From Blasia pusilla (lineage: Eukaryota), in the NCBI GenBank assembly GCA_050084515.1, contig CM114271.1:27032001-27096000 (forward strand): 64,000 nucleotides of DNA, read 5' to 3'. A model generated the notes under the pieces. That model saw only the letters and a program-made list of their open reading frames with translations. It was not told the DNA's origin and did no database searches. Below, in pieces: positions 9,769-60,420 of the stretch. The number at the start of each line of letters is the position of its first letter. Positions within the stretch are counted from its first letter, which is position 1. The translations under genes were made by a program, and so were the position numbers.

Positions 9769-9911
9769 CTGACTGCATAAGCCACAACACCAAATTCAAA
9801 TCTCGATACTCAGCAACTCCGAACTCCTCAAAATCGTAACGTCGTCGTATCAAAACCCTGACTGCCAGCGACTTGGATTCCTCAGACAACAGGTTAAATT
9901 CAGTACGCTCA

Positions 9912-25814: not shown

Positions 25815-26123
25815 TGTAGGAAATCAATTAGTCCAACGAAACAAATCATCAGAGTGCTGATCCAAGAATTGATCACACGGATCAATCCATACGAACGATC
25901 TAGATTAGATTAGGATCAATGTTCTGTTTATGAGCATTGATTACTGCTAGTAACGTTTCATCTTGCGAAACGATACATAGCTATGAGACATTTCTGAAGT
26001 GACACAGTTACCGTCACATTTTTTGATTACGGCTCTTAGTTTAGAGCAGACTTTACTACTTATGTATCGGCTTTTCAATCTATCAATACAGAGAACACAG
26101 AGAGTACAAACGCAATTCTCACA
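25815..26123 (+). repeat. Copia 5' LTR
   Basis: TG..CA ends, followed by the PBS, near-identical to 39681-40007. Confidence 0.95.
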
Positions 26124-32000: not shown

Positions 32001-33465
32001 CGACCACGAAAGTCATCCTCCCGCTTAATGGAGTCACAATGACTACAAGTGAGGTTCTCAAACCCTCCCCCATTACTTGACAATCTAGAGCAAAGCTTGT
32101 GCCTAAAACAACCTTGTATACATACAATTGACCTACTACTTGGGTTGAACACTTGCGCCAAGTGGTAAGCTCACAATCCCAAATAGTTCCTCATGTCGAT
32201 CATCTAGTATGGCCTTCACATCCATCAACTCTCCTCTCCATTGGACGGTTGACTTAAGCCCCAACAAAGCAAACTTAGTCCAAAATCAATGGAGGAAGCA
32301 AACCCACCTTTTCTCGAATCTGCTTCCTTCCTTGAAGGCATCGGGCTAAAGAATTTGGTAATGGAATTTTGAGACGAAATAAGTCCCTAGGATCTGGCTT
32401 CTTTGGTCTTCCCTTCTTCCAGCACCTCAAGACAAGTTGGGCAAAGGTGACCTCTCTAGTATCAAGAGCATCCAAGTGATCACGACTAACCAAGTGTTGT
32501 CGTAGATTATGCTCCAAATTGGCCTTTCTTGGGCACATGTCTGTGTGCAACTTGCCACAGATTATACATCATACCTTGAACAGGTATGACGTGTGTGCAA
32601 ACTGTGTATCAGCAACAGATGGCGTCATAGAGAACACTACTATCTCACCCCCAACCTCTACATTCATTTTCTCAACTATTCCTAAACCTACGGTGATCTG
32701 ATGTTCATGATCCCATTGAGGTTGTTGTATAATGTCACTAGGAGAAATCAATGTACTAGGTAGACCCCATCTCTTACAAAAATTGTCCTTGTGCTTAGGG
32801 TTGTTGAGATGCTTAGTCTTGAAATTGCTAAAGCAATTTGCAATTGATTTTAAAACTTGGGAATTAGCTGCATTCCCATAAGTCTCTCGACACTCTAAGC
32901 ACTCTAGGTGCCCTCGAACATCTTGCCCCTCATCCCACGTTCGCACTCTCCACTTATGCTCATCATATCCTTGTCGCTTTACCCAATCTTTAAGCTTGCT
33001 CCACTCTTCATTCCAACTCTTTGCTGCCACCTCACACATAAGCACTGACTCAAATGAACCTGTGACAGGCAATGTATTGACTACTTGCTCTTGGGTTGTG
33101 GCTTCGTATGTGATTGAGACCCAACATTTGTGTCCTCTATGATAGACACAGAGAAAGAGCAGCAGAGATGAATGCAAGGACACAATTGCAACCCCCAATA
33201 CATCCAGAGGCTTGTTGTGCAATCACAAAACACTCCCTTCAAGTTCACTAATCTCAATGAGGTTCTCAATAGGATGTCTAACTCTACCTGGTAGCCTATC
33301 ATCCCAAAAATCAAATTCAAAGTCAATCGCCCCTAGCACATCGAAAAGTGCGGAAGTCGGCCGTGTTTGTCCTTCTTTGAAGGACAACACACAAATTGGT
33401 ACATCATCCTTCCCTTCCGCAGTCTTTTCTACTAGTCTCACTGAGTTGGAACTAGGGTTTGCCAT
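29076..33465 (-). pseudogene. P-element-like transposase gene: N-terminal C2H2 fingers, RNase H-like DDE core with insertion domain, C-terminal domain; disrupted outside the core
   Basis: The core is ORF 31337-32161 spliced (GT..AG intron 31224-31370) to the ORF ending at 30017. Motifs: FAEDETRIK (D1), LIGFCG, HASDGDARR (D2), DQDPPHNGKK (DxxH), DRQNW, GTKLYL..DYIDIF and GSDCCEIFFS (E). Frameshifts and stops occur in the flanking parts. Confidence 0.75.
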
Positions 33466-33817
33466 TTGTACAAGGTGTCAAAGGCATTCAAACTGTCATA
33501 TATGTAGTTCAACCTGTCATGTACCACAAAAACAAACAAAAGAGGTCACAAATCAAAGTTTGTTATGCTTCTACAACAATTGATAGCCATACATAACATC
33601 AAATAACTATCCTCATTCCAACTTCAAGACTTAATCCATTTAATTCATTACAACCCAACCAAAACGTCCATTCAACATGAGTTATAGTTTTGAGTCTGAA
33701 GATACAAAACTCTTGAAAACATCAAAGTAATTTGTGCAAAATATTACACCTGAAATATGTAATGAGACTATAGACCCATTGTTCTTACCTACAAAATTTC
33801 TCTATCGTATTCAGTGA

Positions 33818-34513
33818 TTAAACCCAAGAGATATGTTGATAATTTGTAGTGCCTAATGTGGGGACAATTGGATGATCAGGGCAATAGATCATCCATCTGA
33901 TCTCATTATGTGCAACATGACGCCAAGATTCTCTGCCAGGTGTAAAACCTTCCTCCTTGCTCGCTGCCAAGCAACCCAAATGCCATGTCTTCGGATATCT
34001 CAAACATTGGACGACGTTTGCTAGATGCTCACTGCGATGCGGCATGTTGCATGCCACACATGTATGGAGAGGGCAACACTGTACATCAAGTGGCAAGCAT
34101 CCAAGGCAGAAGAAACGAACACAGAAAGGTTGGGGGCATTGTCTCATATTAGTTTGAATGGAAGCCATTCTACCACACTTGAAACATTTGTATGTCCCGG
34201 AGGTACACTCTAGACAATACCAAGGGTCGTTCACCTTATCCTTTGGAATGACCACTGCGGGGCAATGAGACACCGTCTGGCCAAATCTATGAACATGGTG
34301 AAATTGTCGATGGCAAAGCCCATCACAAATCACTAGATCTCCATGCAAATCGCAAATAGCACACAAATGAGGACTGCATTGTCGCAACTCAATATCTGAG
34401 AATAGGGGAATTTGTGGCAACCTCATGCTCATCTTCTTCCTAGAGTGTGGATTATTCTTGGCTTGCCCCTTGTACCTTGCCGTTATGGCTACTGGACATT
34501 TAAACATGGACAC
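33818..34513 (-). CDS. EDM2/NSD-like tandem PHD-finger protein carried by the transposon
   Basis: CAICDLHGDLVICDGLCHRQFH...WYCLEC...CFKCG...C...C.RFF...CPLHTCVAC...CLRYPKTWHLGCL...SW...MIYCPDH..PTLGT...HI follows the Cys/His pattern and C-terminal extension of the plant EDM2 PHD cluster. The 5' exons are unresolved. Confidence 0.7.
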   Translation of the reverse strand: MSMFKCPVAITARYKGQAKNNPHSRKKMSMRLPQIPLFSDIELRQCSPHLCAICDLHGDLVICDGLCHRQFHHVHRFGQTVSHCPAVVIPKDKVNDPWYCLECTSGTYKCFKCGRMASIQTNMRQCPQPFCVRFFCLGCLPLDVQCCPLHTCVACNMPHRSEHLANVVQCLRYPKTWHLGCLAASKEEGFTPGRESWRHVAHNEIRWMIYCPDHPIVPTLGTTNYQHISWV

Positions 34514-35247
34514 TGAATTAGTTATAACTTAACCAAATAGAAGATATAGGCATGCATAATTGTAGACAAACTAAAAGACTTAAAAGTCAATTGCTTAGAA
34601 CTCAACTAAATACCAACTCTCACAAAAATAAACTATGCCTGAAAAAGAAGTAGAATCCTTCCTAGGGTAGTTCTGAATGCCTGCTGCAAATGCTTTGAAA
34701 TGAGGGTCTGATAACACACAATGTAGAATAACCATAGAATAATTGTTTCTGCTAGCTCGAGAGAAGAAATAGGCTATAGACATAAACTCAACATCCCCAC
34801 ATGTTGAACACACCTCAAAGGCAGGTTGGATAGTTACATAAGACCACATTACCAATCTGTGCCCTTGTGACCAAGTGGACGGTACCAACTTTGGCCAGCA
34901 GGTACACACTAAGAAACAATTGGGTACTACTCTCATCCCACCCAAAAGGTAGAGAATTGCAAGAAGCGGCATGGATTTCTAGATGTACAACGTGGACGAG
35001 AAGTCTTCCCTTACTTCACAAAAGGGACATGATGCTGATAGCCTGAAGTGAAAGGTTGCAGAACCCCTATAGTTCCAATGACTCTATATGAGATGGGAAT
35101 AACAACAAAATCCTTGAATGGGGCACCGTGTGGGGAGCGGTAATTTGCTCGACGGGCCCCTTAAATGCATCATGCAGCCTCTCTCTCAAGGCTACGACAG
35201 GCACGACAGGAACTACGCAAGGCTACGACAGGCACTACTCATTGAGT

Positions 35248-37684: not shown

Positions 37685-38165
37685 CTGCTGCGCCACTCCA
37701 CTCGAGTCACGCTAAGCCACGCTCTCCTGCCCTGAGAAAGTTGTGCACTCGGAAGGGGCTTCAAGTTGCGGCTCAATTTGGCGCTCAAAGCTGGTCTTCG
37801 AAGGCCAAAACCCTAGACCCAACAAACCCAACTAAAATTGAGAGGGAAACTTCAAAGTAAGCACTTCCTTCTTCCCTCTAAAACTTTTCCATAAAATTGA
37901 TTTTTTTAGCTAGGGAAGCTAATTTTTGTAAAACAATAATTTAATATATGTAGATGTGACATGTATAAACCCTATCTTATCTTAACATTTTCCATGGAAG
38001 GAAGACTAATAAAAAATACCTATTGTTCTTATAAGAGTTTGATGGAATAAATTATGCCCTATTATTCTTCCACAAAACTTAATAAGTCTTCCGATGGACG
38101 CAATTAAAAAACCCCTAACTTTTTCGCACGTGATGGGGCATTTGTGTGGAAGTGAGACCCCCGAG

Positions 38166-38671
38166 CACGTAGAGAGCAAGGATCAGAAAATTTGAGTCCT
38201 TGTTCAGAATGTAAATATTAGAGTCAACAGTGGTGCTGACAAAACCAATGTCGAGTAAAACATAGTGACATCGTTCATACCGCATATGGGCTGATTGCTT
38301 CAAACCATAAATGGACCTTTCGAGAAGGCAGACCAAGTTATTATGGGGAACTAGCAAGCCTGGAGGAAGGGCCATGTAGATCTTGTGTTGCAAGAATCCA
38401 TATAGAAAAGTAGTGATTACATCTAATTGATGTAAGTCCACGTTGAAATAAGCAGCGATAGCAATTACAATACGAAGAGATTGAAGTTTAACAGTAGGAG
38501 AAAAGGTCTCGTCATAATCAAGATCAGGAACTTGAGTAAATCCTTTAGCAACCAGACGGGCTGTGTACTTGTGGATCGTGCCATCCACATGAGGTTTCAT
38601 TTAAAAAACCCAACGGCAACCAATTGTGCTTTGATTAGGAGGAAGGGGAACCAAAGTACAAGCCTTCATTC
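38166..38671 (-). other. Inverted segment of the Copia RT coding region
   Basis: The RT N-terminal half (TLVPLPP..KYTARLVAKGFTQ..SIYGLKQS..LALYV) reads on the minus strand. The rest of pol reads on the plus strand and resumes at LYVDD near 38675. Confidence 0.95.
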
Positions 38672-39680
38672 CTCTCTACGTGGATGACACTTTCATCGCC
38701 AACTCCATTCGTTTTGCGCTGCTTTATTTTGTCAAAACGAAGCTCCTCCAAGAGTTTGAAATGACTGATCTCGGTGAAGCTTATCATGTTTTGGGAATTC
38801 ATATCCAACGAGACCAACAACAAGGATGGATCAGGCTCAACCAGACGACTTACATCACCAACAAACTCAAACAGTTCAACATGCTAGGCTGCAAACCTAT
38901 CTCCACTCCTTTGGATTTTGGCCTTCATCTTAGTCAAGATCAATCTCATGTTCATCTTGATGACATTGCAGCAATGTCTTCTATTCCTTATAAAAGTGCT
39001 ACAGGAAGTTTAATGTGGGCAATGGTGTGCACTCGCCCCGATATTGCCTATTCTGTTAGCACTGTTGCACACTTTATGACCAATCCTGGTCCTATACACT
39101 AGACTGATGTCAAACGTATTTTCAGGTATCTCCAAGGGACAAAACATTACTTTCTCCAATATCAACGCTCATCTATTCCTTTTCATCTTCAAAGATATTC
39201 TGATGCTGCCTATGGAGATAAAATCGACTCCCAAAAATCTACTAGCGGATTTTGCTTTCTCCTTGAAGGAAGAGCAATTAGTTGGGCAAGTAGAAAACAA
39301 AAGTCAGTTGCTCTTTCAAGTACCGAGTCTGAGTACATTGCAATGACTAAAACTAGCACTGAAGCTATTTGGATCAGAAGATTACTTTACGAAATTGGTT
39401 TTACTCAGAAGATAACCGAGATCTTCTGTGACAACCAAAGTGCTATTGCTTTGGTCAGTTCTACAAAACATCATGACCGCACCAAACACATTGACATTCA
39501 ATACCACTATATCAAAGATCAAGTATCAAGTGGCAAAATTATTCTGACCTATATTTCAACTGCAAAGATGATTGCAGACATTTTTACTAAGGGTTTACAG
39601 AAAGGACCTCATTAGAAACATACTGAATCTCTAGGGTTAACTAGTAATCAAAATGGCTGATTTGTTCCCCTGAGTGGGAG

Positions 39681-41653: not shown

Positions 41654-44600
41654 TGTCACATCATAGTTAGCCGACAAATACAATTCATAAGATTGTTCAA
41701 GCATAAATCCTTCCTTAGTGTTTATATGAGGTTAGTGATAACTCAATTGCGTCGAGATTGTCATTTTGAACAAACCCTCTATTTTGCTATTTTGGGCTAG
41801 GTGACCCATTGATGGGTTCAACGATCATCATGTTGCCATTTTAGGCTATTTTTGGGGGAAGAGCTCTTTTAGCCCTTCCCAAGGGTATAAAGGCGGGAGA
41901 GATGGCTTTCATTGGCCATCTCTCTCATATTTAGCCTTTAGAGCATTCATCCTTTTAGGGTTTCATAGAAGTTTGAGTACTAGAGTTTGGATTCCCTTAT
42001 GGCAGAGGGTGGATGTGGCTTGATACAGAGATATACATTTGGGAGTGAAGTTGATTGTGTGAGTTATTTTTACGAGATGACGTCCGTACTCCTTAGAGTG
42101 GAGACATGACACACTTGGATTTACACATTTATTATGTGGCAGTGTTCGAAGGAAGGTATTAGAATGCTAAATCTCTTTGGAGGGATTTAGCTCAAGGTTA
42201 GTTATAGTGTTGTTGGCAATCATACAAATGCATCAGTACCTCTATGTTGGGAGAGATGAGATCACACAACGATATCCTAATTTATTACTAGAATTTGTAA
42301 TATAATACAGGAATACTAGTGTACACTATCTTTTGGTATTTCTTTTTTGGGGCATAAGACCTAGATAGAGTTGCCACCATTGATTTGGTAATCTCTAGAT
42401 CGCCCTGCTAAAGTCATTAATTGGATTTTCGAGGACTTGGTTTGTATGATCTGAGGTCGAACATGGGATTGAGCATATTTTGGGATATGTTGTGTGTATT
42501 GTAGCACATAACATGCTAGATGTTATTGCAAGGCACATGTCGTGCGCATACACATCGCTACACAACATACATCGTTATCACCGAACACACACGCAAACAC
42601 TCACGATCCCATGCTAACTCATGGCATCCAAACAACGAGACAAGAAGTACTAAAATATCTCCAATAAAGTAAGATCCAATCTCTCTCTACACCATCTCAT
42701 ACCATAGCTCTCAAAAGTGTGCATTCTCTCTCATGTCAAACCAAACCCACTCTCTTGATGAGAGACTTGGGTTACACTCACAAGGCAAGGGACCATAGCT
42801 CCGCCGCCTTATGCCAAGAGGTTCAACAAAGAGAGAATGGTCTCTCAAGTTCTCTCTCCTTGAGGTATACCCATCCCCTCTCCCAAGCTCTCTCCATAGT
42901 AACCTATTCTCCCAAGTCACCTCCTTGGCTCTTGACCTAATGTAGGAGGTCAAGGGCCACTTACCAAAAATATAAAGTCGATCATATACTCAAAATGGTA
43001 ATTACCTAAAATAGTAAGTTTCTCAATATGGCTCCAAATGAGCCTAAACGAAGGGGAAACCTGCTCTCTCAAGTTTCCCGGGGCCTCAACAGGTTACCCT
43101 CAACCTACTGAGCATATCCTCCACTATTCATGTAGGCGCTCTACTACATCTCACTGATCTATCCTAAAAGATGTGACATTTGTCGTGCATATACACATCG
43201 CTGTCACCAAACACACACACAAACGCGCACGATCCCATCCTAACTCATGGCATCCAAACAAAGAGACAAGAAGTACTAAAATATCTCCAATCGCTCCCCT
43301 AGTTGGTGGTTAGGTCCCTCTAATTCCAGATAGCCATCTATCCCTACCTACCATGACATACATCTCTCGCACACTAAGAGCAAGAAAGGCCAGGTGCTCA
43401 TGTGGCCCCATCATTAGTCGCCTTCTTGTCATCCATATCACAAAAGAAGTCGGAATCAAAACGAACCTGTATCTCCTCTATGTACATCTGGGATATATCC
43501 ATCGTCCTCGAGGAATCCTAGTGAGAGGTGGCGTCAGACATGCCATATGCCAACCTCTCGAACATCCATCACAGACTAGCATCGTGGCCGCACCAAGGGC
43601 AGAACCACACAACATACAACGCAAGCCTGCAAGAACTACTGTTAAGCTCGGATCTACTATACCATCAATGTTAGGAAGATGATATGGCGCACAATTACGC
43701 ACATGGTCCTTCCATACCATACCATCGTGCCCCTCCAGCAAGAGAACACTGGATGGCAAAACGTCACGCACTCTCAGGATAGTGCGCCCTGCAGTCACAT
43801 CCAATGTCGTCGATGTCGTTTGCTGAAAGAAGACATAATCTCTCTGATGAAACCTCTGGATAGTTGGTCGATAACCACCACCCCGAATAGTCACATACCT
43901 CAACGTATTCCGATGCTACGCAATCCCCAAGTTCTCGAACGCCATGGGCATCACTCTCCGAAATAACTCAGCTCTCTGAGAACATGCTCGCATCCATTCA
44001 TCTAGGTCATCAAGGTCTAGCACCTCACCAGCATCTCGACGAATGGCCGCAGGTAAATCTGGCTCTCAGCCATAAAGTAGCAAGTACGGTGAAAAAGACG
44101 CTAAGGATGCCTGCCTAATGAATCTCTATCCCATCGTCTGCACAACTCTCTCCGCTAATCCATCCGCCTCGAGACGATCTCGCGAAGTCGTGCGGTGGTT
44201 GATTAGCGCGTGATCACACAAGGTCTGGAACTCACCGCAAATCGGGTACTGATGCTCAACACTCACCGGTCGCCATAATGACTCAGCACTCTGTCAAGGA
44301 AGGCATAACCTACTCCCTCACTCGCTTTGTCAGGAAATACCTCGATCTACTTCGAGAAGTGCTCGACCATCATCAACACATAACGACTGTGACGCTCTGT
44401 CAAGGCAAAGGTCCTGCAAAATCCAAACTCCATCTATATCCTAAGCCCATGATCAGTAATGGATGCAATTGTGGAGTCGCAACATTGAACAATGCTCAGA
44501 CCCGATCACACACCATGCACCTGGCAAAAAACTGTTGAACGTCAATCTGCATGCCTCGCCACCAATACTGAATCTGGAGCAAGTTGTACGTCCGCTTCAT

Positions 44601-47600
44601 CCCAAAGTGATCCAACTCCTCATGGGCATGCTGCACTAGTCGTGCTCTCTGCAAAGGATGCAACACTACGTGTACTCTGCCATCCTCCCAAACCCTCAAA
44701 ATATGTGTCCCCTCCCAACGGAACTGTCTGGCCCGCTGTAGGATCTGATCCCGCTCTCTAGCACCCACGGTGCTCACAACGCTACCAGTACAAAGGTACT
44801 CCAAGACTTCTCCATCATCATGAATATCTCGGCCACTTGTCATGTCATCGCTATCCTCGGGATCCAAGGACTTTCCACTAGACCTCGCCATTGAAGTCTC
44901 CACACTCTAGCTCTCCATAGCCAACATGCCTAAATAGGCTGACGCGTGCCATTGTGGCAGTGACTCCTCATCACTCTCTCCATGCCATCGAGCTCCAATC
45001 GCATCTTGCTGACTTGGGCATGGGTTACGACTCAACCCATCTACATCCTAGTTGAGCGTCCCAGGTCTATGTACCACATGAAAATCATACTCCTGCAACA
45101 AGAGAGCCCATCTCGCAAGCTTCTGTGTAAGCTTGTCGGACTCCATCAACCACTTCGGTGGTTGATGATTAGTAATGATGGTAAAGGGATTGCCGAATAA
45201 GGAACACCTCAAATGCCAGACAGCCCACACTGCATCCAAGCACTCACCCTTATACGAGTTGTACTTCGCCTCTACAGCGTTGTTCGAGCGGCTAGCGTAA
45301 GCCACCACGAACTCTCTACCCTCATCATTATGTTGGGTGAGCACCGCTCCAAGCCCCAACATGCTCCAATATGTGTGCAACTGGAAAGGATGCCCCCTGA
45401 TCGGTATCCTCAAGATGGGCGTGGACGTCAACCTGTCCTTGAGCAACTGAAATGCTCGCTCTTACTCATCCCCCTAGTGCCACTCGTGATCCACCTTGGT
45501 CAGCAAGGTTAGCGGCTTCACAATCGAAGTGAATCCCTTGACGTACTGCCGATAGGAGTTCGCCAATCCCATGAATGCACGAACACGGCTCACATCTGTA
45601 GGGTGTGGAATGCGTGAGGTAGCCTCTACCTTCGTTTGCTGAACACCAAGGCCCCGTGGGTATATCGTATGACTCAAGTACTCAATCTGGTCGTAGAAGA
45701 ACTTGCATTTGCCTGGATGTAGCTTCAGCCCATGTAATTGCAATCATCGAAACACCTCCTCTAGATGTCGCTCATGCTCCTCAACCGTGGCGCTAAAGAC
45801 TATGATGTCATAAATATAACACCTAGAAAAATCCAGATCAGCCAAGATCCTATCCATGACCCTCTGAAACTCAATTGGGGCATTCTTTAACCCAAATGGT
45901 AAGAACCGCCACTGATACAAATAATCCTTCCCGTGAGGATCGATGCCCCAAAATGTCGTCTTTTGCATGTCCTCCAATCTGATAGGCAGCTGATGGTATT
46001 CGGCTCGCAAATCCAATGAACTGAAGAGCTTTGCGTGACCAATTGCATCAAAGATCTCCTCAGGGGTGGACAATGCATACCTATCGCACTTGGCATACCT
46101 ATCGGACTCGATGACTCTCAGCCTCGCGAGTAATCCCTGAATCATTGATCCCAAACATGCGGCACTCGATCTTCACTCTCCCTCCCCGAGACGTATAACG
46201 TACGACAACAAGCGGTGTGGTGCCGCAAATCGACCAAGCTATCATCTCATCGACAACCTACCCTCAACTCTAGACATCCCACACAGGTCTTTGTCCCCTA
46301 AACCACATTCATAAATGATGCTCTCAGCATCCACACAACCCAATATCCACAAATAAACTACCCAAATCCTTGAATCCCTTATGCGTGCAGGATAAAGGAC
46401 CAAAATAGGTAACCTGAACACATATTCATGTCGCTCCTCAACAACTACATATCTCGATCCCAACTCGGTCGTGGAGACAACTCTTCCAATGAGCAAGTCA
46501 TACTCCTCCCGTACTGACGCTGCTCAAAACTCCTCGATAGATTGTGCGGTTCCAACAGAACGGTGCGGCATTGCAGGTGGCACGGAACAACTACGAACGG
46601 AACGGCCCTCGATGGTGGGATGCGGCACTCGGCGGCATACCCTCCTCAATCAACAATAAACCCACACTCTGCTCCACAATAACGGAGCAACTCGTTGATG
46701 GAGACGGTGTGGTGCATCCATGAGCGGCACGGCACGGCAATCGACGGCGCGTTGCGGCTACGGGCGTCACGGTACGGTACTCGATAGTTGTCGAGCGGCT
46801 ACCAATCACAACATAACAACATGAAATCAAAACGAAAACACCATAACCGGAGGTCATCTACCATCACTGGTTAATGACGAAACAACGATGATGGTGGCGG
46901 CCAAAATTGCGTACGTGGTGGGACTTAAGTCAGAAAATCAATGAACGTTGTGGAAGACCTTCCACTCTCTAACGGCGGCAATGGCAACCAAAGGGTGGAC
47001 AACGGACGGTGGACCATTGACGATGATGGTTGACCGTTGATGGTGACGGCCGACCGGTGACGGTGATGGTTGACCATCAACGGTAGACCGTTGATGGTGA
47101 CTATGACGTCGACGGTCGCCGCCGGCGTGGCGGTTGGTTTGGGGTTTGAACAATTTAACCCTAAAAATTGCCTAGCAATGGCAATTTTGCAAGATTGACC
47201 ATAACTTTTTGCTCACAACTCAAAATTGCACACTATTTCTTGCACAACCTGCACAACTTTATGATCTACAACAACGTCAAAAAATATTTAGAATCAGACA
47301 TTCCAATAAAAACCGACAGGGATTGTCATAAAGCCCAATGTCTTTTTCTCTTAGACAAAATTTGGCAGCGCTTCTGCCCTGATTTCTCCCAACCAAAATG
47401 TAAAACCTATAAAAATACAAATCAACAAGCTACATGGTGCTCTCAAGAGCACCGGTATGGGGCAACCCGCCCCCATAATCAATCCCTATCATAAATTGGG
47501 CAGCGCTTCCGCGCGCCACTCTTCCACACGAAAAATCGACAAATGCAAAGAACAATCAAAATAGCCCTTGCTCCGGTGAGCACTCCCATGAGCTGCTGAA

Positions 47601-48598
47601 ACAACGAGGGACCAATGAGCTCCCCCATGAAGCTCTCTCACTCTCTCATTCTCTCTTTGTAAGTAAGATCCAATCTCTCTCTACACCATCTCACACCATA
47701 GCTCTCAAAGGTATGCACTCTCTCTCATGTCAAACCAAACCCACTCTCCTAATGAGAGGCTTGGATGAGACTCACAAGGCAAGGGACCATAGCTCTGCCG
47801 CCTTATGCCAAGAGGTTCAACAAAGAGAGAATGGTCTCTCAAGCTCTCTCTCCTTGAGATATACCCATCCCCTCTCCCAAGCTCTCTCCATGGTAACCTA
47901 TTCTCCCAAGTCACCTCCTTGGCTCTTGACCTGATATAGGAGGTCAAGGGCCACTTACCAAAAATATAAAGTTGATCATATATTCAAAATGGTACTTACC
48001 TAAAATAGTAAGTTCCTCAATATGGCTCCAAATGAGCCGAAACGAAGGGGAAACCTGCTCTCTCAGGTTTCCTGGGGCCTCAACAAGTCATCCTTGACCT
48101 ACTGAGCCTGTCCTCCACTAATCACAAAGACGCTCTACTACATCTCATCGATCTATCGTAAAAGACGTGACACACACGATCTGGAAGGATTATATGTGAT
48201 ATACTATCTTTCGAAAGTATGTGGGAAAGTTTATTCAATCTATGCAGTCATACATGTAGGTTTGAGGTGAATGTTGTGTGGATCTACAAGGGATGAAGCC
48301 ACAATGTTGGGATGTGATAGCTGTTCTAGAGTATCATATGTCGTATTTGGCACCTCATCAAGAAAAATTCACCCTTCTTGATGAGGCTCCGACAGAACAA
48401 TGATTATGTCCCAAATGTGCATAAATAATCCATTATGTCAAATGAATATGATGTGTGCTACTTGGAGTTAGGAGACCCAATTTCCAATTCGGGGGTGGTT
48501 GTGATCTTATTACATATGTATGAGTCAATTTTTGTATGTTTGCGGATCTACCTATGCGTTGGGAAGATCAATGAATAACGATGTCTATATGCACGACA
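41654..48598 (+). mobile_element. Old, internally deleted relative of the DNMT/PHD Gypsy family; host of the 42538-48172 insertion
   Basis: Begins TGTCAC and ends GCACGACA like the younger copies; flanks ATCT/ATCC (imperfect 4-bp TSD). Degenerate DNMT motifs I-IV at about 42100-42505 (EGIRMLNLFGGI, HQYLYV, IDLVISRSPC, FWDML). Degenerate integrase tail and PHD at about 48175-48425 (MLCGSTRDEATMLGCDSCSR..LCPKC). Confidence 0.7.
42538..48172 (-). mobile_element. Gypsy-type retroelement with split direct repeats (copy A); retains RT-RH-INT-PHD, lacks most of gag, PR and DNMT
   Basis: A1 47661-48172, B1 43181-43291, A2 42666-43178, B2 42538-42665; TSD CACA on both sides. RT at 45474-46100 (LPFGLKNAP). 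RH at 45048-45446. Integrase HHCC at about 44500-44630 and core at about 44130-44460 (WSLDFAGPLP, DGLAER). PHD at 43478-43630. Confidence 0.93.
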
Positions 48599-50567: not shown

Positions 50568-51696
50568 TCTCAGCCACAGGACCCCAAATCGCGATAGAAA
50601 AACCGATGTTAACGCGACTTCCTCCGCCTTCGCCCTAAAGCTCGATCACAACCAACGTTTGCAACTCTCGTCCGACAGTAGCAAACCAAAACATCTCCAA
50701 TGCATCTCGTCAACACCCTGACTCAAACGCTGCTCGATTCATAGCACAAGATTGATAAGAACTGGGTAGTGGCATGATCGTACTCCTCCCAAAGCTCGAT
50801 CGGCTTGACTTAGCAGAATTAGGAGCTCTATCCCACATCCCCGCAATGCATGCATTTTCTTTGCCTCCGAGACATGGAATCGTCTAAACTTTAAACATCT
50901 CTTGCAACCCTCAGATTCATAGGAGTGCCTTAGCCTTAACGTATTCCAATTACCGCTTGAGCCCCTCACTCTATTCCGCCACAACTGCATTCTCCGGCGG
51001 GAAGTTTTGCTGTCAACGCCCTGTCCAAACCAGCCCCGTTCAAGCGGCGCGGCCCAGCCATCCGCTTTCGGCCGCAGCGTCTTGACCGCCAGAATCCAGC
51101 CAGCCACCCTTGGCAACGATATGATCACCATCGCTTTCCCTGCACGAATGTGGGGCCTACCTGAGGTGTGATAGAGGTATGCTCTCGATAGACTGTAATT
51201 TCATGTTTCCCTCCTAAGGAAGAAAAAAAGGGAGGACGATGTTTCTAAAGCCCGAAGCCTTTATGGTTGCGGGCTTAGGGGTTCCCACTAATTGGGAACC
51301 CTTGAGCGCCCTAACCTACCCATTATCTCCTAACTTACCCCCAACTCCCTAACTAACGTCTTTCCTCAAGGTTACCCCTATGGGCCTATCACGTCCTTTA
51401 AGATAGATCGGTGAGATCTAGTAGAGCATCTTCAAGAGTAGTGGAGGATAGGCCTAGGAGGTCGAGGATGACGTGTTGAGGCCCCGGCGAAACCAGAGAG
51501 AGCAGGTTTCCCCTTCGTTTTGGCTCATTTGGAACCATATTGAGGAACTTACTATTTTAGATGAGTACCATTTTGAGTATATGATCGATTATCTATTTTT
51601 GGTAAGAAGCCCTTGACCTCCTACATCAGGTCAAGAGCCAAGGAGGTGACTTGGGAGAATAGGTTACCATGGAGAGAGCTTGGGAGAGGGGAGGGA

Positions 51697-51918
51697 TATA
51701 TATCCCAAGGACAGAGAGTTTGAGAGCTCATTCTCTCTTTGTTGAACCTCTTGGCATGAGGCAGTGGAGCTATGGTCCCTTGCCTTGTGAGTGTAACCCA
51801 AGCCTCTCACTAGGAGAGTGGGTTTGGTTTGACATGAGAGAGAGTGCACACCTTTGAGAGCTATGGTGTGAGATTGTGTAGAGAGAGATTGGATCTTACT
51901 TTACAAAGAGAGAATGAG
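51697..51918 (+). promoter_or_regulatory. Retroelement TATA box, Inr-like start and self-complementary primer-binding site
   Basis: TATATA at 51697-51702. About 28 nt downstream, CTCATTCTCTCTTTGT (51727-51742) is the exact reverse complement of ACAAAGAGAGAATGAG (51903-51918), which lies right at the end of repeat A1. Confidence 0.75.
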
Positions 51919-54900
51919 AGAGTGAGAGAGCTTCATGGGGGAGCTCATTGGTCACTCGCTATTTTTTCAGGTTGGGGATCGTGTTCCCTATTCAACGGCT
52001 CATGGGAGTGCTCATTGGAGCAAGGGTTGCTTGGATTGTTCTTTGCATTTGCCGATTTTTCATGTGGAAGAGTGGCGCGCGAAAGCGCTGCCCAATTTCT
52101 GATAGGGATTGAGTATGGGGGCGGGTTGCCCCATGCCGGTGCTTTCGGGAGCATCATGTTGCTTGCTGATTTGCATTTTTACAGGTTTTACAATTTTGTT
52201 GGGAGAAATGAGCGCGGAAGCGCTGCCAAATTTTTTGTAGGAGAAAGAGACATTGGGCTTTACGACAGTCCCCGTCAATTTTTTACTGGAATGTTTGATT
52301 CTGAATATTTTTTTATGCTGGCATAGATCGTGAAGCTCTGCACGCTGTGCAACAAAAAATGCACAATTTGGAGTTGCGAGAAAAAAATTATGGTCAATCT
52401 TGCAAAATTGCTATTGCTAGGCAATTTTTAGGGTTAAATTGTGCAAACCCTAAACTAGCCGCCACACCAGCGGCGGCCGTCGCCGTCATAGTCACCATCA
52501 ACCTTCAATGGTCAATCATCACCGTCAATGGTCCACCGTCCGTTTTCCACCCTTGGTTGCCATTGCCGCCGTTACGGAGTGGAGGGTCTTCCACAACGTT
52601 CGTTGATTCTCAGACTTGCGTCGCCATCACGTACTTTGTTTTGGTCGCCACCGTCATGAACCTGTGATGGCATATGACCTCATGTTATAGTGTTTGAGTT
52701 TTGATTTCATGCTGTTATGTTGTGATTGGTAGCCGCTCAACGACGATCGAGTACCATGCCGTGACGCCCATAGCCGCAACGCGCTGCCGATTGCCGCGTC
52801 GTGCCGCTCGTGGCCGCACCGCAGCGTCTTGATCGCGGAGCCGCTCTGGCATTGTGGAGAAGAGTGTGGGTTTATTGTTGATTGAGGAGGGTATGCCTCC
52901 AAGTTCCGCATCCCATCATCGAGGCCGTGCCGTTCGTAGCCGTTCCGTGCCGCCTGCAACGCCACACCGTTTCGCTGGAACCGCACCGTCTATCGAGGAG
53001 TTTTGAGCAACGTCAGTACGGGATGAGTATGACTTGCTGATTGGAGGATTTGTGTCCATGACCGAGTTGGGGTTGAGATTTGCAGTTGTTGAGGAGCGAC
53101 ATTGACATGTGTTCAGGCTACCCATTCTGGTCCTTTACCTTGCACGTGTGATCATGAGGGATTCTGGGATTTGGGTAGTTTATTTGGGGATACTGGGTGT
53201 GTGGATGCTGAGAGCATCATTTATGTATGTGGTTTAGGGGACATAGACCTGTGTGGGATGTTCGGAGTTGAGGGTAGGTTATCGGTGAAATGATAGCCTG
53301 GTCGATTTGCCCCACCACGCCGATTATTGCCGCACGTTACATGTCTCGGGGAGGGAGAGTGTAGATCGAGTGCCGCATTTTTGGGATGAGTGATTGAGGG
53401 ATTATTCGCAAGGCAAGAGTGATCGGGTGAGAAGGGCATGAGGGTCATCACGGCGTCCGTTCGGGACTTTGAGAGGCGAGGTGGTGAACCCGAGAGCAGC
53501 TCTAGAGGTTTTACGCGGAGTGGCGTGAGGTTCTGAGGGTCTTCACTTGAGGGACCACCTCGACCTCCTTCTCTGTCATCGTCACACAAGGGGGAGGGTG
53601 TAGAGGAGTTTGTGAGCACATCGCCACACATTGTGAAGAGAGAGTCAGGAGAGGAGAGAGAGTCAGGAGAGGCTACTTCCTCTTCCACAAGTGATGTTTT
53701 AGGAGGAGCCTAGAGATCGTTCACCAAGTAGTCCCGTTGGGAGACGAGGAGCTGGAGTTTCCCGACAGGGTGGTGGAGCTGCCCGTGGAGGAGGTAGAGT
53801 ACTACCACCTAGACGTTGGACGTGAGGGTGGGATGGCTGCTCAGATACAGTAGTTGCATGAGCAGATTGCCGCTATGGCATTGAGGTTACCCGATGTCGG
53901 ATCCGTGGCATCGATATCATATGGAGCAGCCAGAGATGTGGAAGGTCCTAGTTGGATGTGCGGGGTTTCCCAGATGGAGGCCGCCGCAGTTGTGACGCGT
54001 GGAGCAGCTGCAGAGTTGGATCCACAGCGAGAGGAAGCCAGGAAACAGACAAGGCTTCCTCAGTCTTTCACGTTGTCCGAGGCGATGAGGATCCCATCGA
54101 TGGGTCCTGAAGAGCTGGTGATGTTGTTGGTGTGTAGGCATGGAGGGCGATGGGAGAAGCGAGTATGACGACTCCTATTGTTGATGCTCAGGAGGGGCAT
54201 GTGTTGAGCACGTTCTTGGGGGCGGCCACCGTTGTGTACCGCACTCCTTTATTTTCTGCTTCTGATGTTATGACGTTGGGGGGTACGCCCGCCGAGGCTT
54301 TTTGGCTGGCCGCTTCACTATGTGAGCGCAGAGTTGGAGTTCTTGCATCACGTTCAGAGGTGATTGCAGAGGAGGTGATGGACATGCCCTTGGAGCGGAT
54401 GCTCGGGCCGTCTGCGTCAGATGCATGGTAGGCTGCGGCTGCTAGGATGACGGAGATGCCCGCTAGACCCGCGATAGAGCATGCCATGGCTTCTCCTAGT
54501 GTTGTGTTGCTGGATAACCAAGGAGAGGTATTCCAGTTGGTGAGTCCCGGAGATAGAGCTTTTAGTCCATAGCGCGTCTTGTTGGATTCAGGAGCGCAAC
54601 CCCTGATGTTGGGGAAAGCGTCATTCAGAGGATTGGGCTTGACAAGAGCCGATGTGGAGTGTTGTCCATTCCAAATATAGACATCCTTTGGGTGGAGCAA
54701 GTACCACATAGTATATTCACCCGACATGAGGTCGTGGTGAGAATTCGCTGGGGACATCCTACAGATAAGTCCGTGGTGCGAGCCAAGGCGATAGTGACTA
54801 ATGCAGAGTCCTACGACGTCTTGGTTGGTGGAGCAGTGGTATATCCAATGGGGTTTGCCCTGGATTATTGGGAGGATTCAGCGTCCTACAAATCAGGATG

Positions 54901-55289
54901 GCAGTCAGGTGATGGGCGCCTTAGTTCATTATTCGTTCGATTCACAGGTGCAGTGATCGAGCAACGACCAGGAGAGATGGCGACCTTATCAGCATTTAGC
55001 AGTGCCATCACTTGGCCTAGTGATTTGATTGAGGGACATGTCCATGCAGAGGATACTCCCATTCCTGATATTTCTATGGAGAGGAGTGTTATGGTAGCTC
55101 CATCATTCCGTGGAGGAGAGGTGCCATTGTGGGGCTCGACTGAGGAGCTTCGAAGATTGGCATATGAGCACGTGCAGACCGCGTGGAGCGAGGCGTTTGG
55201 ACCGGAGCGTGACGGGTCTGAGGAACCCGAGGTAGCAAGGAGTGCTACGATGACACCCTTGGATACCACACCCATTGTGTGGTGTATCT

Positions 55290-56250
55290 TGGAGGAGGGT
55301 ATTCGAGTGTTAGATCTCTTTGGAGGGATTAGCACCGGGTTAGCTGTTGTTTTGCAGGCACGAGTGCGAGTACAACAGTACCTGTATGTGGAGAGTGATG
55401 ATGTTGCGAGGCGCGTCTCACTATGACATGTGGCGCACTTACGCCTATGTTTTCCCGACTTATTGTCTGTGTCCGCGGTACAGGGGTACCAGAGTTCCCT
55501 ACCCAGGGATATTTCGTTGTTGGGGGCGCAGGACTTAGAGCGGGTAGGGACCATTGATTTGGTCATTTCCGATTGGCCATGTGAGGGCCAATCGAGTGTT
55601 GGACGAGGAAGCGGGTTGGCTGACACTCGGTCTAGATTGTTTTGGGAGATGTTGAGGGTCTTACGGCGATTCAGAGAGCTGGTCTCATTCTCCAGCCTAC
55701 ATTCTGGAGAATGTGCCCATCTTAGGAGACTCCAGGTCACGGGTGGTGACGAGTGCTCATCAGGTGCGTGCTTGGATCGGCCCAAGCAGTATTCTTGGAT
55801 GGGGCGAGTGTAGGTTCTAGAGCCCATCGCCCGCGTCTATGGTGGACCAACTTGGTGCCTCATGCGGGGTTACGGAGGGCGTATGCGAGAGTGGAGCGCC
55901 CCTCCCATTTGTTAGTGGATTCCATTCTAGATCCAGGTCGTCGATCACAAGTAGAGAGGCACTATGATCGACCACCGCTGACTGTGGTCAACAGGGTAGG
56001 CAGGCCGCGGGCAGCCTTTCCCACGTTTGTGAGTTTTCCCGCTTCCTATGCATACAAGGAGGCCGATCCTGGCTTGGTTTGGGATGACCAGGTTCAGAGG
56101 TTGGTGGAGCCCAACGCTGACGAGAGAGAGCGGGCGATGGGATTTCCCACAGGAGGGACGGCAGTCTTGTCAGTATCAGAGGCATCATGACGCCATGTCT
56201 TGGGTCAAGCGATGGACCTGAACTACTTGATATGGATCTTCAGCTTGGGA
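55290..56250 (+). pseudogene. C5-cytosine DNA methyltransferase domain (DNMT3-like motif pattern) within retroelement pol
   Basis: Motifs in order: I IRVLDLFGGISTG (55301), II YLYVE, IV IDLVISDWPCEG (55571), V SRLFWE, VI YILENV (55701), VIII AHRPRLWWTN (55825), IX ERERAMGFP (56122), X LGQAM (56200). Interrupted by stops and frameshifts. Confidence 0.92.
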
Positions 56251-59200
56251 GTGGCTGAGCAGCGTCGGATGAGATCGCGACAGATCACAACGGTTGTGTT
56301 GGTGAGCCCCATGCCTACCGAGACAGTGGAGGCAGTGGCTAGGGGCGAGACCCGAGGAGATCGACACACCAGAGGAGATCGGGAGAGACACCCTTGGACT
56401 TCTTGGGATGTTTTGCAGGTACGCCACGAGATGATAGCCACAGCATCAAGCGTAGTTCCGAGCACTGCACGTGGAGGAGATCAGAATTTGCAGTTGGCAG
56501 CAGAAGAGCAGCCGAGTGTTGTTGTTCAAGATTGGATTGCACCATAGCAACCACCGAAACCCGCGCCAGAGAGTGTTACCATAGTCACGATCAAGACTTG
56601 GGAGCCAGATATGGGCCCTACATTGACAGGAGGAGAGCGGCACCGGATACATCAGTTCCTCAGGAGTTATAGGAGCTACTTTGCATTTAGCATGGAGGAT
56701 TTGGGTACGCTGAAGGGACCAGGGATCCGCATTGAGTTGTCAAGTGACACGCCGATCTTCCGACGACCCTACAGGTACAGTGATATGGAGAGGGCTCTGA
56801 TTCAAAGTAGGAGCTAGGACTTGGTCGGAGGAGGACTAGTGAAGATGTCCCATGGGGAGTATGCATTTGCCATTGTCATGCCCGCCAAGAAGGATGTGCA
56901 TGGCAACTGGACAGATAGGCGGATGTGTGGGGATTACCGACCTATCAATCGACAGACGAAGTCCGATAGTTATGCCATGCCCACCCTTGAGGAGATCTTT
57001 GATGCGATTGGTCACACAAAGGTCTTCAGTTCATTGGATTTGCGAGCCGGATACCATCAACTGCCTATCAGATTGGAGGACAGGCAGAAGATGGCATTTT
57101 GGGGCATCGATCCTCACGGGAAAGATTTTTTGTACCAGTGGTGGTTCTTACCATTTGGGTTAAAGAACGCCCCGACTGAGTTTCAAAGGGTCATGGATAG
57201 GATCTTGGCTGGTCTGGATTTTGCTAGGTGTTATATTGATGACATCATAGTCTTTAGCGCCACGGTTGAGAGCATGAGCGACATCTAGAGGAGGTGTTTC
57301 GACGATTGCAATTACAAGGGCTGAAGCTACATCTAGGCAAGTGCAAGTTCTTCTACAACCAGATTGAGTACTTGGGTCATACAATATACCCAGGGGGCCT
57401 TGGTGTTCAGCATTAAAAGGTAGAGGCTATCTCACGCATTCCACGCCCTACAGATGTGAGTCGTGTTTGCGCATTCATGGGATTGGCAAACTTCTATCGG
57501 CGGTACGTTAAGGGATTCAATTCAATTGTGAAGCCCCTGACCTTGCTAACAAAGGTGGATCATGAGTGGCACTCGGGGGATGAGCAAGAGAAAGCATTTC
57601 AGTTGCTCAAGGATAGGTTGACGTCTGCGCCCATCTTGAGGAGACCGAACCGGGGGCGTCCTTTCCAGTTGCACATAGATTGGAGCATGTAAGGGCTTGG
57701 AGCGGTGCTCACCCAACATGATGATGAGGGTAGAGAGTTTGTGGTGGCTTATGCTAGCCGCTCGAACAATGCTGCAGAGGTGAAGTACAACTCGTATGAG
57801 GGTGAGTGCTTGGCTGCGGTGTGGGCTGTCACGCATTTTAGGTGTTACTTATTCGGCAACCCCTTTACCATCATCACTGATCATCAACCACTTTAGTGGT
57901 TGATGGAGTCCGGTGGTTATCGACCAACTATCCGGAGGTTTCATCAGGGAGATTATGTCTACTTGCAGCAGACGGCACCGACGACGTTGTATGTGACTGC
58001 AGGGTGCACTATCTTGAGAGTGCGTGACGTTTTTCCATCCGGTGTTCTCTTGCTGGAGGGACGCGATGGTATGGTATGGAAGGACCATGTGCGTAATTGT
58101 GCACCATATCACCTTCCTAATATTGATGGTATAGTAGATCCGAGCTTAGCAGTAGTTCCTGCAGGGTTGTATGTTGTGTGGTTCTGCCCCTGGTGCGGCT
58201 ACGATGCTAGTCTATGATGGTTGTTCGAGAGGTTGGCATATGGCATGTTTGACGCCACCTCTCACTAGGGTTCCTTGGGGACGATGGATGTGTCCCAGAT
58301 GTACATAGAGGAGATACTAGGTAGGTTTCAATCCCGACTTTTTCTCTGACATGGATGACACGAAGGCGACTAACGATGGGGCCACATGAGCACCCAACCT
58401 TCTTGCTCTTAGCGTCTGAGAGATGTATGTCATGGTAGGTAGGGATAGATGGCTATCAGCAGTTAGCGGGACATAACCACCAGCTAGGGGGGCAATTGGA
58501 GATATTTTGGTACTTCTTGTCTCGTTGTTTGGATGCCATGAGTTAGCATGGGATCGTGCGTGTTTGTGTGTGTGTTCGGTGACAACGATGTATGTTGTGT
58601 AGCAATGTGTATGTGCACGACAACTGTCACGTCCTTTAGGATAGATCGGTGAGATCTAGTAGAGCGTCTTCAAGAGTAGTGTAGGACATGCCTAGGAGGT
58701 CGAGGATGACCTACTGAGGCCCCGTGAAACCTGCTCTCTCAGGTTTCCCCTTCGTTTTGGCTCATTTGGAGCCATATTGAGGAACTTACTATTTTAGGTA
58801 ACTACCATTTTGAGTATATGATAGACTTTCTATTTTTGTTAAGTGGCCATTGACCTCCTACATCAGGTCAATAGCCAAGGAGGTGACTTGGGAGAATAGG
58901 TTACCATGGAGAAAGCTTGGGAGAGGGGAGGGGTATATATCCCAAGGAGAGAGAGAGCTTGAGAGCTCATTCTCTCTTTGTTGAATCTCTTGGCATGAGG
59001 CGGCGGAGCTATGGTGCCTTGCCTTGTGAGTGTAACCCAAGCCTCTCATTAGGCGAGTGGGTTTGGTTTGACATGAGAGAAAGTGCACACCTTTGAGAGC
59101 TATGGTGTGAGATTGTGTAGAGAGAGATTGGATCTTACTTTATTGGAGATATTTTGGTACATCTTGTCTCGTTGTTTGGATGCCATGAGTTAGTATGGGA

Positions 59201-60420
59201 TCGTGCGTGTTTGTGTGTCTGTTCGGTGACAACGATGTATGTTGTGTAGCGATGTGTATGTGCACGACAGGCCTTTTCGGGCTAGAATGCTCCACCTTTC
59301 GATCATGAGGGATAATGTTGGACCGGAATGCCACAAATATCCATATATCCATCGTGGATATTGCCATGATATGGGTTTGTTTATGAAGCTTATCATGTAC
59401 ATGATCCCCATGGTAACCCCCAAGCCTACATGAGCAACATCACTCCCAAAAATGCCGACCTTCTTCTTTCTCTCCATCTTATGGACGTCAACTGGGGAAC
59501 TTGTGAGCTGAAGTGTATCTTTCCAATGAATAAAAATTTGTGTTGGAGATCCATGTAAGCAACCAATGATGACTTGAGGATGAATGAAATCTAACGGTCA
59601 TAACAACCCAACCATTGGAAGGAAGTTGAGTACGATTTGATGGCAGAAAATTGTATGTCAACGGAATGGCTTTTGACATCAGCGAATGACCTCATTCCTT
59701 GGAAAACCCTAAGCCTATTTTCCAAAGTTTTCTGAGCTGACTACTTGCAAAATGGTTTCCCACGATTGGACAGGTTTGTCCTCTTTGGAATGGTTTCCAT
59801 CGAACATTGCACCTTCTTTCGAGAATGGCCTTTGCATCTAACACGTTATTGCTCCAACATTATCGTTGCAATGTTATCGCTAGGATTCATCATTTGGTGC
59901 ATCTTTTATTAGACACCCAAGAGTATTGTTGCACGAAAGATACTAACGCTCAATATCCCGTTTGCAAAGGTCGGAGTACACGGAAAATGCTTTTTGTGTT
60001 TGGACTATTTTTTCTTGGAATTCTCTCTGTCACACATGCCTATGCACCATGGTGAACCTTTTTTTTTCCAATTTTCTTAGCAAATGTCTTCCTGCAACGA
60101 GCAATATCCTTAAGGCTTTAGAAAGTGTGTTCCTTCACAAGATGTAGTTAGGAAGGATTCGCGGGTTCTCTTGAGTGTGAACTTATGAAAAATTTGGTGC
60201 TCATGTTGAGGTACTCTTGGATTTTTCCACTCTTCCGCTCCTTCTCATATTCCACTACCCTATTGTTGTTGTGCTTATTAAACAACTTATGTAGTGTCAT
60301 TTTGGCATTAATAGGTCTTGGTAAATCTTCCCTTCGAGTTCAATCATGGCATCTACCTGTCTCCAAAGAGTTGTGTGAGGAGATTCATAGAGGATGGGGA
60401 AACCCTATACCTAGGGTCTA

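Follow-up and report, generated by a model that had tools for sequence, protein, structure and literature searches.

DNMT-bearing retrotransposons and the Blasia locus

Cytosine methylation is a host's main weapon against transposons, and since methylation serves as host defence, it is puzzling that some transposons encode a de novo methyltransferase themselves. Retrotransposons of this kind have been published for dinoflagellates and for one charophyte (de Mendoza et al. 2018, PMC5890265). That paper describes KnitGypsy-Dnmt3, in which a DNMT3-related domain lies in the Pol of a long terminal repeat (LTR) Gypsy element of Klebsormidium nitens, and whose repeats follow the DIRS-like layout A-coding-B-A-B, but whose domains are those of Gypsy. 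It also describes SymbioDIRS-Dnmt3 of Symbiodinium, reported as an independent acquisition (PMC5890265). The charophyte alga is thus the sole plant-lineage example in print, and enzyme activity was not demonstrated there. The present analysis concerns a stretch of 64,000 nucleotides of the Blasia pusilla assembly (contig CM114271.1, positions 27,032,001 to 27,096,000), called the window below, in which the broken pol reading frames of a retrotransposon (+ strand, 54566-58308) hold a C5 cytosine methyltransferase (DNMT) domain between the protease and the reverse transcriptase (RT). This element, copy 1 (51387-59269, + strand), is very probably a dead member of the Gypsy-DNMT3 family in a liverwort-like land plant genome. 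An original prediction, made from the letters of the window alone, had recognized the domain and had rightly named the published dinoflagellate and charophyte elements.

Copy 1 resembles KnitGypsy-Dnmt3 in several ways: both are Ty3/gypsy elements, both carry in Pol a DNMT3-type domain that is not rearranged, both have A…B-A-B repeats, and both fall in the same DNMT clade. They differ in host, which is a charophyte there and a liverwort-like land plant here; protein identity between K. nitens and liverwort-type relatives is ~31%, and the window copy is dead. Copy 1 is placed in the KnitGypsy-Dnmt3 family because of the shared repeat layout, the shared order of gag, protease (PR) and DNMT, and a colinear homology that extends beyond the DNMT. 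SymbioDIRS-Dnmt3 likewise has a DNMT3-type domain in Pol and A…B-A-B repeats, but there a tyrosine recombinase is found, whereas the elements here have a DDE integrase and 4-bp target-site duplications. A DIRS-type (tyrosine recombinase) element was considered for copy 1 and rejected, given the DDE integrase of a second copy in the window (copy 2) and of relatives, together with the 4-bp duplications. The original prediction had taken the locus as a lineage persisting in a land plant; the persistence holds, while the lineage is not a separate one and belongs to the Gypsy-DNMT3 family already described. Later papers (a 2026 preprint; PMC12344493) cite the 2018 work and, in the parts available, mention only 'streptophytes (Gypsy-DNMT3)', and no text describing Gypsy-DNMT3 elements in liverworts or mosses was found in the full-text literature, supplements not being covered. 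This kind of element has been known since 2018, and what is newly shown here is its extension into land plants.

A DNMT3-type methyltransferase domain in pol

The domain was detected with a profile built from the family itself (profile A1; 18 family proteins, 422 positions), which was run against all 2097 six-frame open reading frame (ORF) pieces of the window. It matches five pieces on the + strand, which are colinear and cover profile positions 2-389 of 422, with E values ranging from 6e-63 to 2e-9 (Table 1). The motifs that we take, from the general literature on C5 methyltransferases, to be I (FxGxG), IV (PC), VI (ENV), VIII (RxR) and X stand in the DNMT order I-IV-VI-VIII-IX-X along the strand, between the LLDSGA of the protease and the YIDD of the RT. 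The central claim of the original prediction, an ordered set of C5 methyltransferase motifs on one strand between these two enzymes, is therefore borne out both by the motif coordinates and by the colinear profile matches. The general HMMER model PF00145 was passed narrowly: one of the five pieces of the DNMT region lies above the cut-off (55427-55813, 25.4 bits against a cut-off of 22, E 1.2e-5), and when the region is read through with X at the breaks, the N-terminal half reaches 16.9 bits, below the cut-off, and the C-terminal half gives no match to this model. Relatives score 35-58 bits, and even in intact relatives PF00145 aligns only at its positions ~3-233, the N-terminal two thirds of the domain. 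Read through with X, the window DNMT scores 474.9 bits against the family profile, which is the stronger evidence of the two. A search of a protein atlas for look-alikes returned generic PF00145 clusters only.

Both profile and fold mark the domain as DNMT3-type. Searched against the PDB, the family profile finds DNMT3A, DNMT3B and DNMT3C at E ~1e-22 (83 bits), DRM at 5e-12, and M.HhaI and DNMT2 at ~1e-8, with no DNMT1 at E<=0.01; even the degenerate half from the window has DNMT3B, 3A and 3C as its first matches (E ~1e-3). An AlphaFold model of a relative, P0023, has a mean predicted local distance difference test score (pLDDT) of 69.3 and a predicted template modelling score (pTM) of 0.72; its core is mostly above 85, and it is poor at the termini and at residues 316-350 (pLDDT <50 at 316-350). 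The top Foldseek matches of this model are all DNMT3A/B/C catalytic domains, with E 5e-18 and TM 0.75-0.79 on the target. DRM methyltransferases have a rearranged motif order, and that of the window DNMT is not circularly permuted. Throughout the family alignment, where mean column identity is 38%, the catalytic motifs are invariant, including the PC cysteine and the ENV glutamate. The catalytic domain of cellular DNMT3A/3B/3C is thus the best match of the element domain by profile and fold, and the motif order I-X is common to both. The element domain differs in lacking PWWP and ADD, in its place between a retroviral-type protease and RT, and in the stretch from motif VIII to motif IX, where its insert is longer and poorly modelled.

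Architecture of copy 1 and its neighbours

Copy 1 is a Ty3/gypsy element flanked by a 4-bp duplication, GGCC, and its features are collected in Table 1. The pol order expected of Ty3/gypsy, protease, RT, RNase H and integrase (IN), is found here, with a gypsy-type RNase H in copy 1; the integrase, seen in copy 2 and (as rve) in relatives, is of the DDE type. Both window copies have the TG(TA)…CA ends and 4-bp target-site duplications of LTR elements, yet their repeats are split and do not form two whole LTRs. In copy 1, repeat A stands at the 5' end, and repeat B, two bases, repeat A and a second repeat B stand at the 3' end (A…B-A-B). The two A repeats align with 474 matches, 40 mismatches and 5 gap columns.

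Copy 2 lies on the opposite strand. It keeps the 1.26 kb that is absent from copy 1 (45137-43879), with Integrase_H2C2 and integrase-core ORFs, and it also has a PHD finger (43478-43615, - strand); its terminal repeat regions are at 42538-43291 and 47661-48172. What it lacks is the equivalent of 53428-56959, a stretch of 3.5 kb that holds the end of gag, the protease, the DNMT and the start of the RT (~43 residues at the N-terminus of the RT piece). A third family member survives as a relic at 42106-42510, truncated by the insertion of copy 2 at 42538. The relic aligns over 155 nt at a nucleotide identity of 73% (E 3.5e-15) and gives a tblastn match of 53% over motif IV (E 1.9e-8), and its profile A1 pieces are colinear but weak (E 0.013, 0.2 and 3.5). 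The diverged relic with the same domain, on which the original prediction had leaned, is thus real, but it is weak and reaches only about from motif I to motif IV.

The absence of the domain from copy 2 could be read as a sign that copy 1 merely captured a host DNMT3 fragment, as a one-off event or nested insertion, and that the domain is no part of the family's pol. The gap in copy 2, however, takes away the protease and the RT N-terminus together with the DNMT and is for this reason a deletion. The domain in copy 1 has no insertion junctions, and it sits at the same place in relatives of at least six named genera. One relative, P0220, reads as a single uninterrupted ORF of 2188 aa (6.6 kb) through PR-DNMT-RT, which also speaks against a chimeric gene model. 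We therefore give a capture almost no credence. The DNMT is a trait of the family, as had been predicted, since relatives in other species carry protease, DNMT and RT in one polyprotein.

Table 1. Coordinates of the methyltransferase domain, of copy 1 and of related sequences in the window
Feature	Position	Strand	Evidence or remark
Profile A1 match	54566-55423	+	profile 2-58, E 9e-16
Profile A1 match	55427-55810	+	profile 61-144, E 1e-28
Profile A1 match	55656-55817	+	profile 147-183, E 2e-9
Profile A1 match	55750-56187	+	profile 174-313, E 6e-63
Profile A1 match	56191-56544	+	profile 316-389, E 6e-11
Motif I, DLFGGISTG	55313-55339	+	
Motif IV, DWPCEG	55571-55588	+	
Motif VI, ILENVP	55701-55718	+	
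Motif VIII, RPRLWWTN	55828-55851	+	
ERERAMGF	56122-56145	+	
Motif X, LGQAMDLN	56200-56223	+	
Target-site duplication GGCC, 5' side	51383-51386		identical 4 bases at 59270-59273, directly after terminal CA
Terminal repeat A1 (5' 'LTR core'), 517 bp, begins TA (other copies TG)	51387-51903	+	92.2% identity to 58625-59141
Degenerate gag C-terminal part and pre-protease region	53824-54430	+	tblastn, Marchantia P0004 residues 395-673, two frames, stops 53851 and 54429
Aspartic protease, LLDSGA at 54579-54596, interrupted by stops and 1-base insertions	54432-54900	+	tblastn alignment to P0003
DNMT3-type C5 cytosine methyltransferase domain, three reading frames	55270-56280	+	Pfam, tblastn, family profile, motifs
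Reverse transcriptase, YIDD at 57232-57243, one frameshift near 57280	56575-57416	+	PF00078 E 1.4e-18 and 5.9e-7; tblastn of P0014
RNase H	57417-57911	+	PF17917 E 6e-24; PF17919
Deletion point, ~1.26 kb (integrase zinc finger and catalytic core) missing	57912	+	copy 2 holds 45137-43879 there, with Integrase_H2C2
Integrase C-terminal part	57913-58160	+	77% protein identity to copy 2 43888-43604
PHD finger, C-terminus of pol	58168-58305	+	PF00628 E 7.7e-10; also in copy 2 and relatives
Purine-rich run (AGCTAGGGGGGCA), candidate polypurine tract (putative role)	58481-58494	+	directly 5' of repeat B1
Repeat B1, 128 bp	58495-58622	+	96.9% identity to 59142-59269
Repeat A2	58625-59141	+	pairs with A1
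Repeat B2, 3' end of element (…GCACGACA)	59142-59269	+	pairs with B1
Copy 2, related element with A…B-A-B ends, target-site duplication CACA (42534-42537 / 48173-48176)	42538-48172	-	blastn 84-91% to copy 1; tblastn; ORFs; Pfam
Diverged DNMT relic, third family member, ~motifs I-IV only	42106-42510	+	blastn, tblastn, profile

Relatives and the two pol architectures

Searches with different parts of the element reach well beyond the window. With the protease and the N-terminal half of the DNMT as query, 20 longer proteins were found at 32-56% identity (16 from Marchantia polymorpha, one from Calypogeia fissa, one from Sphagnum fallax and two unnamed). The DNMT domain of P0003 returned 72 proteins, comprising 18 from Marchantia, two from Calypogeia, three from Sphagnum, one from Closterium, one under a cyanobacterial-bin label and 47 unnamed. 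The family proteins of Marchantia, Calypogeia and Sphagnum are in public databases, annotated as hypothetical proteins. An exhaustive profile search gave 19375 proteins at E<=1e-3 and 529 cluster representatives at E<=1e-30; the best 150 of the 19375 are all element copies, each with at least 264 bits. Names among 30 looked-up proteins include Scenedesmus sp. PABB004 ('pol'), four of Closterium, and K. nitens GAQ93235.1. No vascular plant is among the named matches of the family searches, most matches being nameless and angiosperm absence not itself having been tested.

Two pol architectures can be told apart in these proteins. The order CCHC-PR-DNMT-RT-RNaseH-IN is found in P0220, in Closterium and in the liverworts, and K. 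nitens is of this type, its protein GAQ93235.1 (P0276) reading CCHC-PR-DNMT by Pfam. In the order RT-RNaseH-DNMT-IN-PHD, found in Scenedesmus KAF8056149.1 (P0244), in P0219, P0210, P0205, P0224 and P0066, and in many metagenome polyproteins, the DNMT instead lies between RNase H and integrase, and the only named host, Scenedesmus sp. PABB004, is a chlorophyte. A PHD finger after the integrase is common to both window copies and to relatives of both architectures. The two kinds also separate in a FastTree tree of 201 DNMT domains, for which 34 of 235 sequences were dropped (<240 aligned residues) and the split was set at the midpoint, with no outgroup. One clade (72 tips, support 0.985) holds 13 sequences with the DNMT before the RT and none with it after; its sister (129 tips, support 0.888) holds 75 with the DNMT after the RT and none with it before, the architecture of the 113 tips without an RT match being left unscored. 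The window DNMT, with X at the breaks, falls in a 14-tip clade with Marchantia and Calypogeia (support 1.0), and K. nitens is placed in a basal branch within that larger clade of 72 tips.

The tree and the alignments also bear on whether bryophyte elements and KnitGypsy-Dnmt3 took up a DNMT3 convergently, the former being then a separate lineage. Such convergence has a precedent in the independent captures of DNMT3 by DIRS and by Gypsy elements, as given in the 2018 paper (PMC5890265). It would also be in keeping with the identity of only 31% between the K. nitens protein and the liverwort-type one, and with a tree that is unrooted relative to host DNMT3. The protein GAQ93235.1 is taken here, as an unconfirmed assumption, to be one of the KnitGypsy-Dnmt3 copies. 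Its alignment with P0003, however, is colinear over 571 aa (31%, E 5e-60): it starts at the protease active site, crosses a family-specific linker and ends where the DNMT does. The two also agree in domain order and in the unusual A…B-A-B repeats, and K. nitens lies inside the clade with the order PR-DNMT-RT. Convergence is for these reasons very improbable, and membership of copy 1 in the one Gypsy-DNMT3 family is preferred. The repeat layout was also looked for in ten metagenome relatives, of which two have the full A…B-A-B (L033, repeats 5999-6321 and 14774-15316; L072, repeats 6141-6477 and 14775-15344), three have one long pair spanning the element, and five have no such pair.

One sequence of this group carries a bacterial name. 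P0033 is listed at NCBI under a metagenome bin, 'Candidatus Obscuribacterales', with the label DNA cytosine methyltransferase. In the tree it nests among streptophyte-type element copies, and because of this position, DNA of a plant or alga is probably present in the bin.

Decay of copy 1

Copy 1 is old and dead and does nothing itself, as follows from the stops and frameshifts in its DNMT, the deletion of its integrase core and its diverged terminal repeats. Two TGA codons (55424 and 56188) interrupt the DNMT, whose frame also shifts near 55678-55684 and again near 55781-55797; the protease region has stops at 54570 and 54678, and in all ten stops interrupt the aligned coding region. The A repeats are 7.8% diverged. 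The inactivation noted in the original prediction is thus confirmed. Even so decayed, the window DNMT keeps 29 of the 33 family-invariant residues, including those of the PC, ENV and RxR motifs; of the four that are lost, three stand beside the catalytic cysteine (A to S, G to D and Q to E) and one is an arginine replaced by a stop.

The same prediction had called several TGA and TAG stops compatible with deamination of methylated CGA and CAG. When the stops are compared with relatives, two TGA stand opposite arginine and three TAG opposite glutamine, while five of the ten fit neither change. Deamination is thus compatible with half of the stops. It is only weakly informative and not diagnostic: the mismatches between the A repeats are half transversions (20 transitions, 20 transversions), and 7 of the 40 are at CpG.

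Host and transcription of related copies

That the host is a land plant, as predicted, is supported by a threonyl-tRNA synthetase exon of the window (7270-7707, - strand), which is 91% identical to Marchantia polymorpha, 91% to Riccia sorocarpa and 89% to Riccia fluitans; Sphagnum follows at 86%, Calypogeia and Physcomitrium at 81%, and vascular plants lie below 82%. By this exon, the host is closest to the complex thalloid liverworts. The annotation of the family in Marchantia, Calypogeia and Sphagnum also points to a land plant.

The host has many related copies that are transcribed, and copy 1 has some defects that are private to it. In three RNA runs of the host species, reads cover all 30 bins of 52000-58480. 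The mapped reads number 2077, 1810 and 2266, of which 1826, 1646 and 2021 have only 90-95% identity to the window copy and therefore stem from other copies. On the - strand, the first mate is about ten times commoner; provided that the libraries are stranded in the customary way, the related copies are transcribed in sense. The reads continue past 57912 into integrase-linker sequence, base 54716 is left out by most of them (23 of 27 in run X20), and base 54687 is left out by some. In DNA run X1, the contigs give a very high summed depth over the element.

The RNA runs also contain a joint that skips 1070 bases (window 56710-57781), seen in 10, 15 and 7 reads of the three runs and not in the contigs of the one DNA run compared; either a transcribed copy with a deletion or splicing could account for it.

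Possible functions of the family

In intact copies, the methyltransferase would be made within Gag-Pol and would travel with the RT and the integrase. It could then methylate the cDNA just synthesized or the new insertion, as the authors of the 2018 paper propose for Pol-borne DNMT3 (PMC5890265). The PHD finger fused to the integrase may steer integration to chromatin with a particular state of the histone H3 tail. A histone-tail reader at the integrase C-terminus is a likeness to the chromoviruses, which use a chromodomain for targeting (according to the introduction of the 2026 preprint); here the reader is a PHD finger and not a chromodomain. In the PDB, the best matches of the window PHD finger are CHD4 PHD2, PHF12, KDM5B/KDM5A PHD1, KAT6A, DPF3 and PHF21A. 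Several of these fingers read the unmethylated H3K4 tail, and by analogy the matches would point integration at silent chromatin, which is a lead. Taken as a whole, the mechanism of a Gag-Pol-borne DNMT that methylates cDNA or insertion, with a PHD finger that steers integration, is put forward tentatively, as a real possibility on which we would not yet rely.

A number of points weigh against the reading of copy 1 and its kin as one family with a working methyltransferase. No enzymatic activity is known for the Gypsy-DNMT3 family, and the 2018 paper reports that the KnitGypsy-Dnmt3 domain gave no methylation in yeast, a result that its authors call inconclusive (PMC5890265). In the window copy, the three changed invariant residues stand right beside the catalytic cysteine. 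The ratio of observed to expected CpG is 0.75-0.76 in the element and 0.26-0.47 in the flanks, so that nothing points to an additional loss of CpG through methylation in the element. In the 26 loci examined of 80 metagenome loci, the longest DNMT ORF is 467 aa, and none has an intact polyprotein. As for replication, the A…B-A-B layout is unexplained by ordinary LTR-type reverse transcription, which should yield two identical LTRs, and there is no worked-out scheme for an element with both split repeats and a DDE integrase. Finally, a single acquisition would rest on colinearity and on clade membership in a tree without an outgroup.

The yeast result and the CpG ratio of an element that is not CpG-poor relative to its flanks would also suit a domain kept for something other than methylation of its own cDNA, be it methylation of the element's RNA, methylation of host DNA near the insertion or elsewhere, or non-catalytic binding of DNA or chromatin. 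RNA methylation has indeed been raised, by the same authors, for a LINE-borne DNMT (PMC5890265). The invariant PC and ENV motifs in so varied an alignment nevertheless speak for catalysis, the profile is far closer to DNMT3A/B than to the tRNA enzyme DNMT2, and the SymbioDIRS-Dnmt3 domains methylate CG de novo in yeast, as the 2018 paper reports (PMC5890265). Another role of this kind appears rather unlikely, and methylation of cDNA or insertion stays the proposal that we prefer.

A broader picture can be drawn, in which an ancient green-lineage family joins a writer (DNMT3) to a reader (PHD), has come to its two pol architectures by one move of the domain, and is still transcribed, and perhaps still moving, in liverworts. 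Its enzyme would methylate the family's cDNA or the sites of insertion and would in this way contribute to the methylomes of bryophytes. This is speculative, and we think it unlikely to hold in every part. The family is abundant and transcribed in liverworts, is present in Sphagnum and Closterium, and is annotated in Marchantia polymorpha. As Marchantia polymorpha can be transformed and has methylome data, self-methylation, its sequence context and the question of benefit or taming become testable. Two further handles are the PHD finger, which is conserved, and the other pol architecture.

Other features of the window

Further from the element, the exons of an organellar-type threonyl-tRNA synthetase lie at 5380-9800 (- strand). 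Four long ORFs (407, 277, 217 and 236 aa) at 30017-34528 (- strand) belong to an unknown gene or mobile element; no Pfam family was found in them, except weak NSD-like PHD matches in the last. A Ty1/copia element occupies 26000-29000 (+ strand), with Pol_BBD, gag_pre-integrs, rve and SH3_retrovirus, and copia-type RT and RNase H fragments are found on both strands at 38115-39615.

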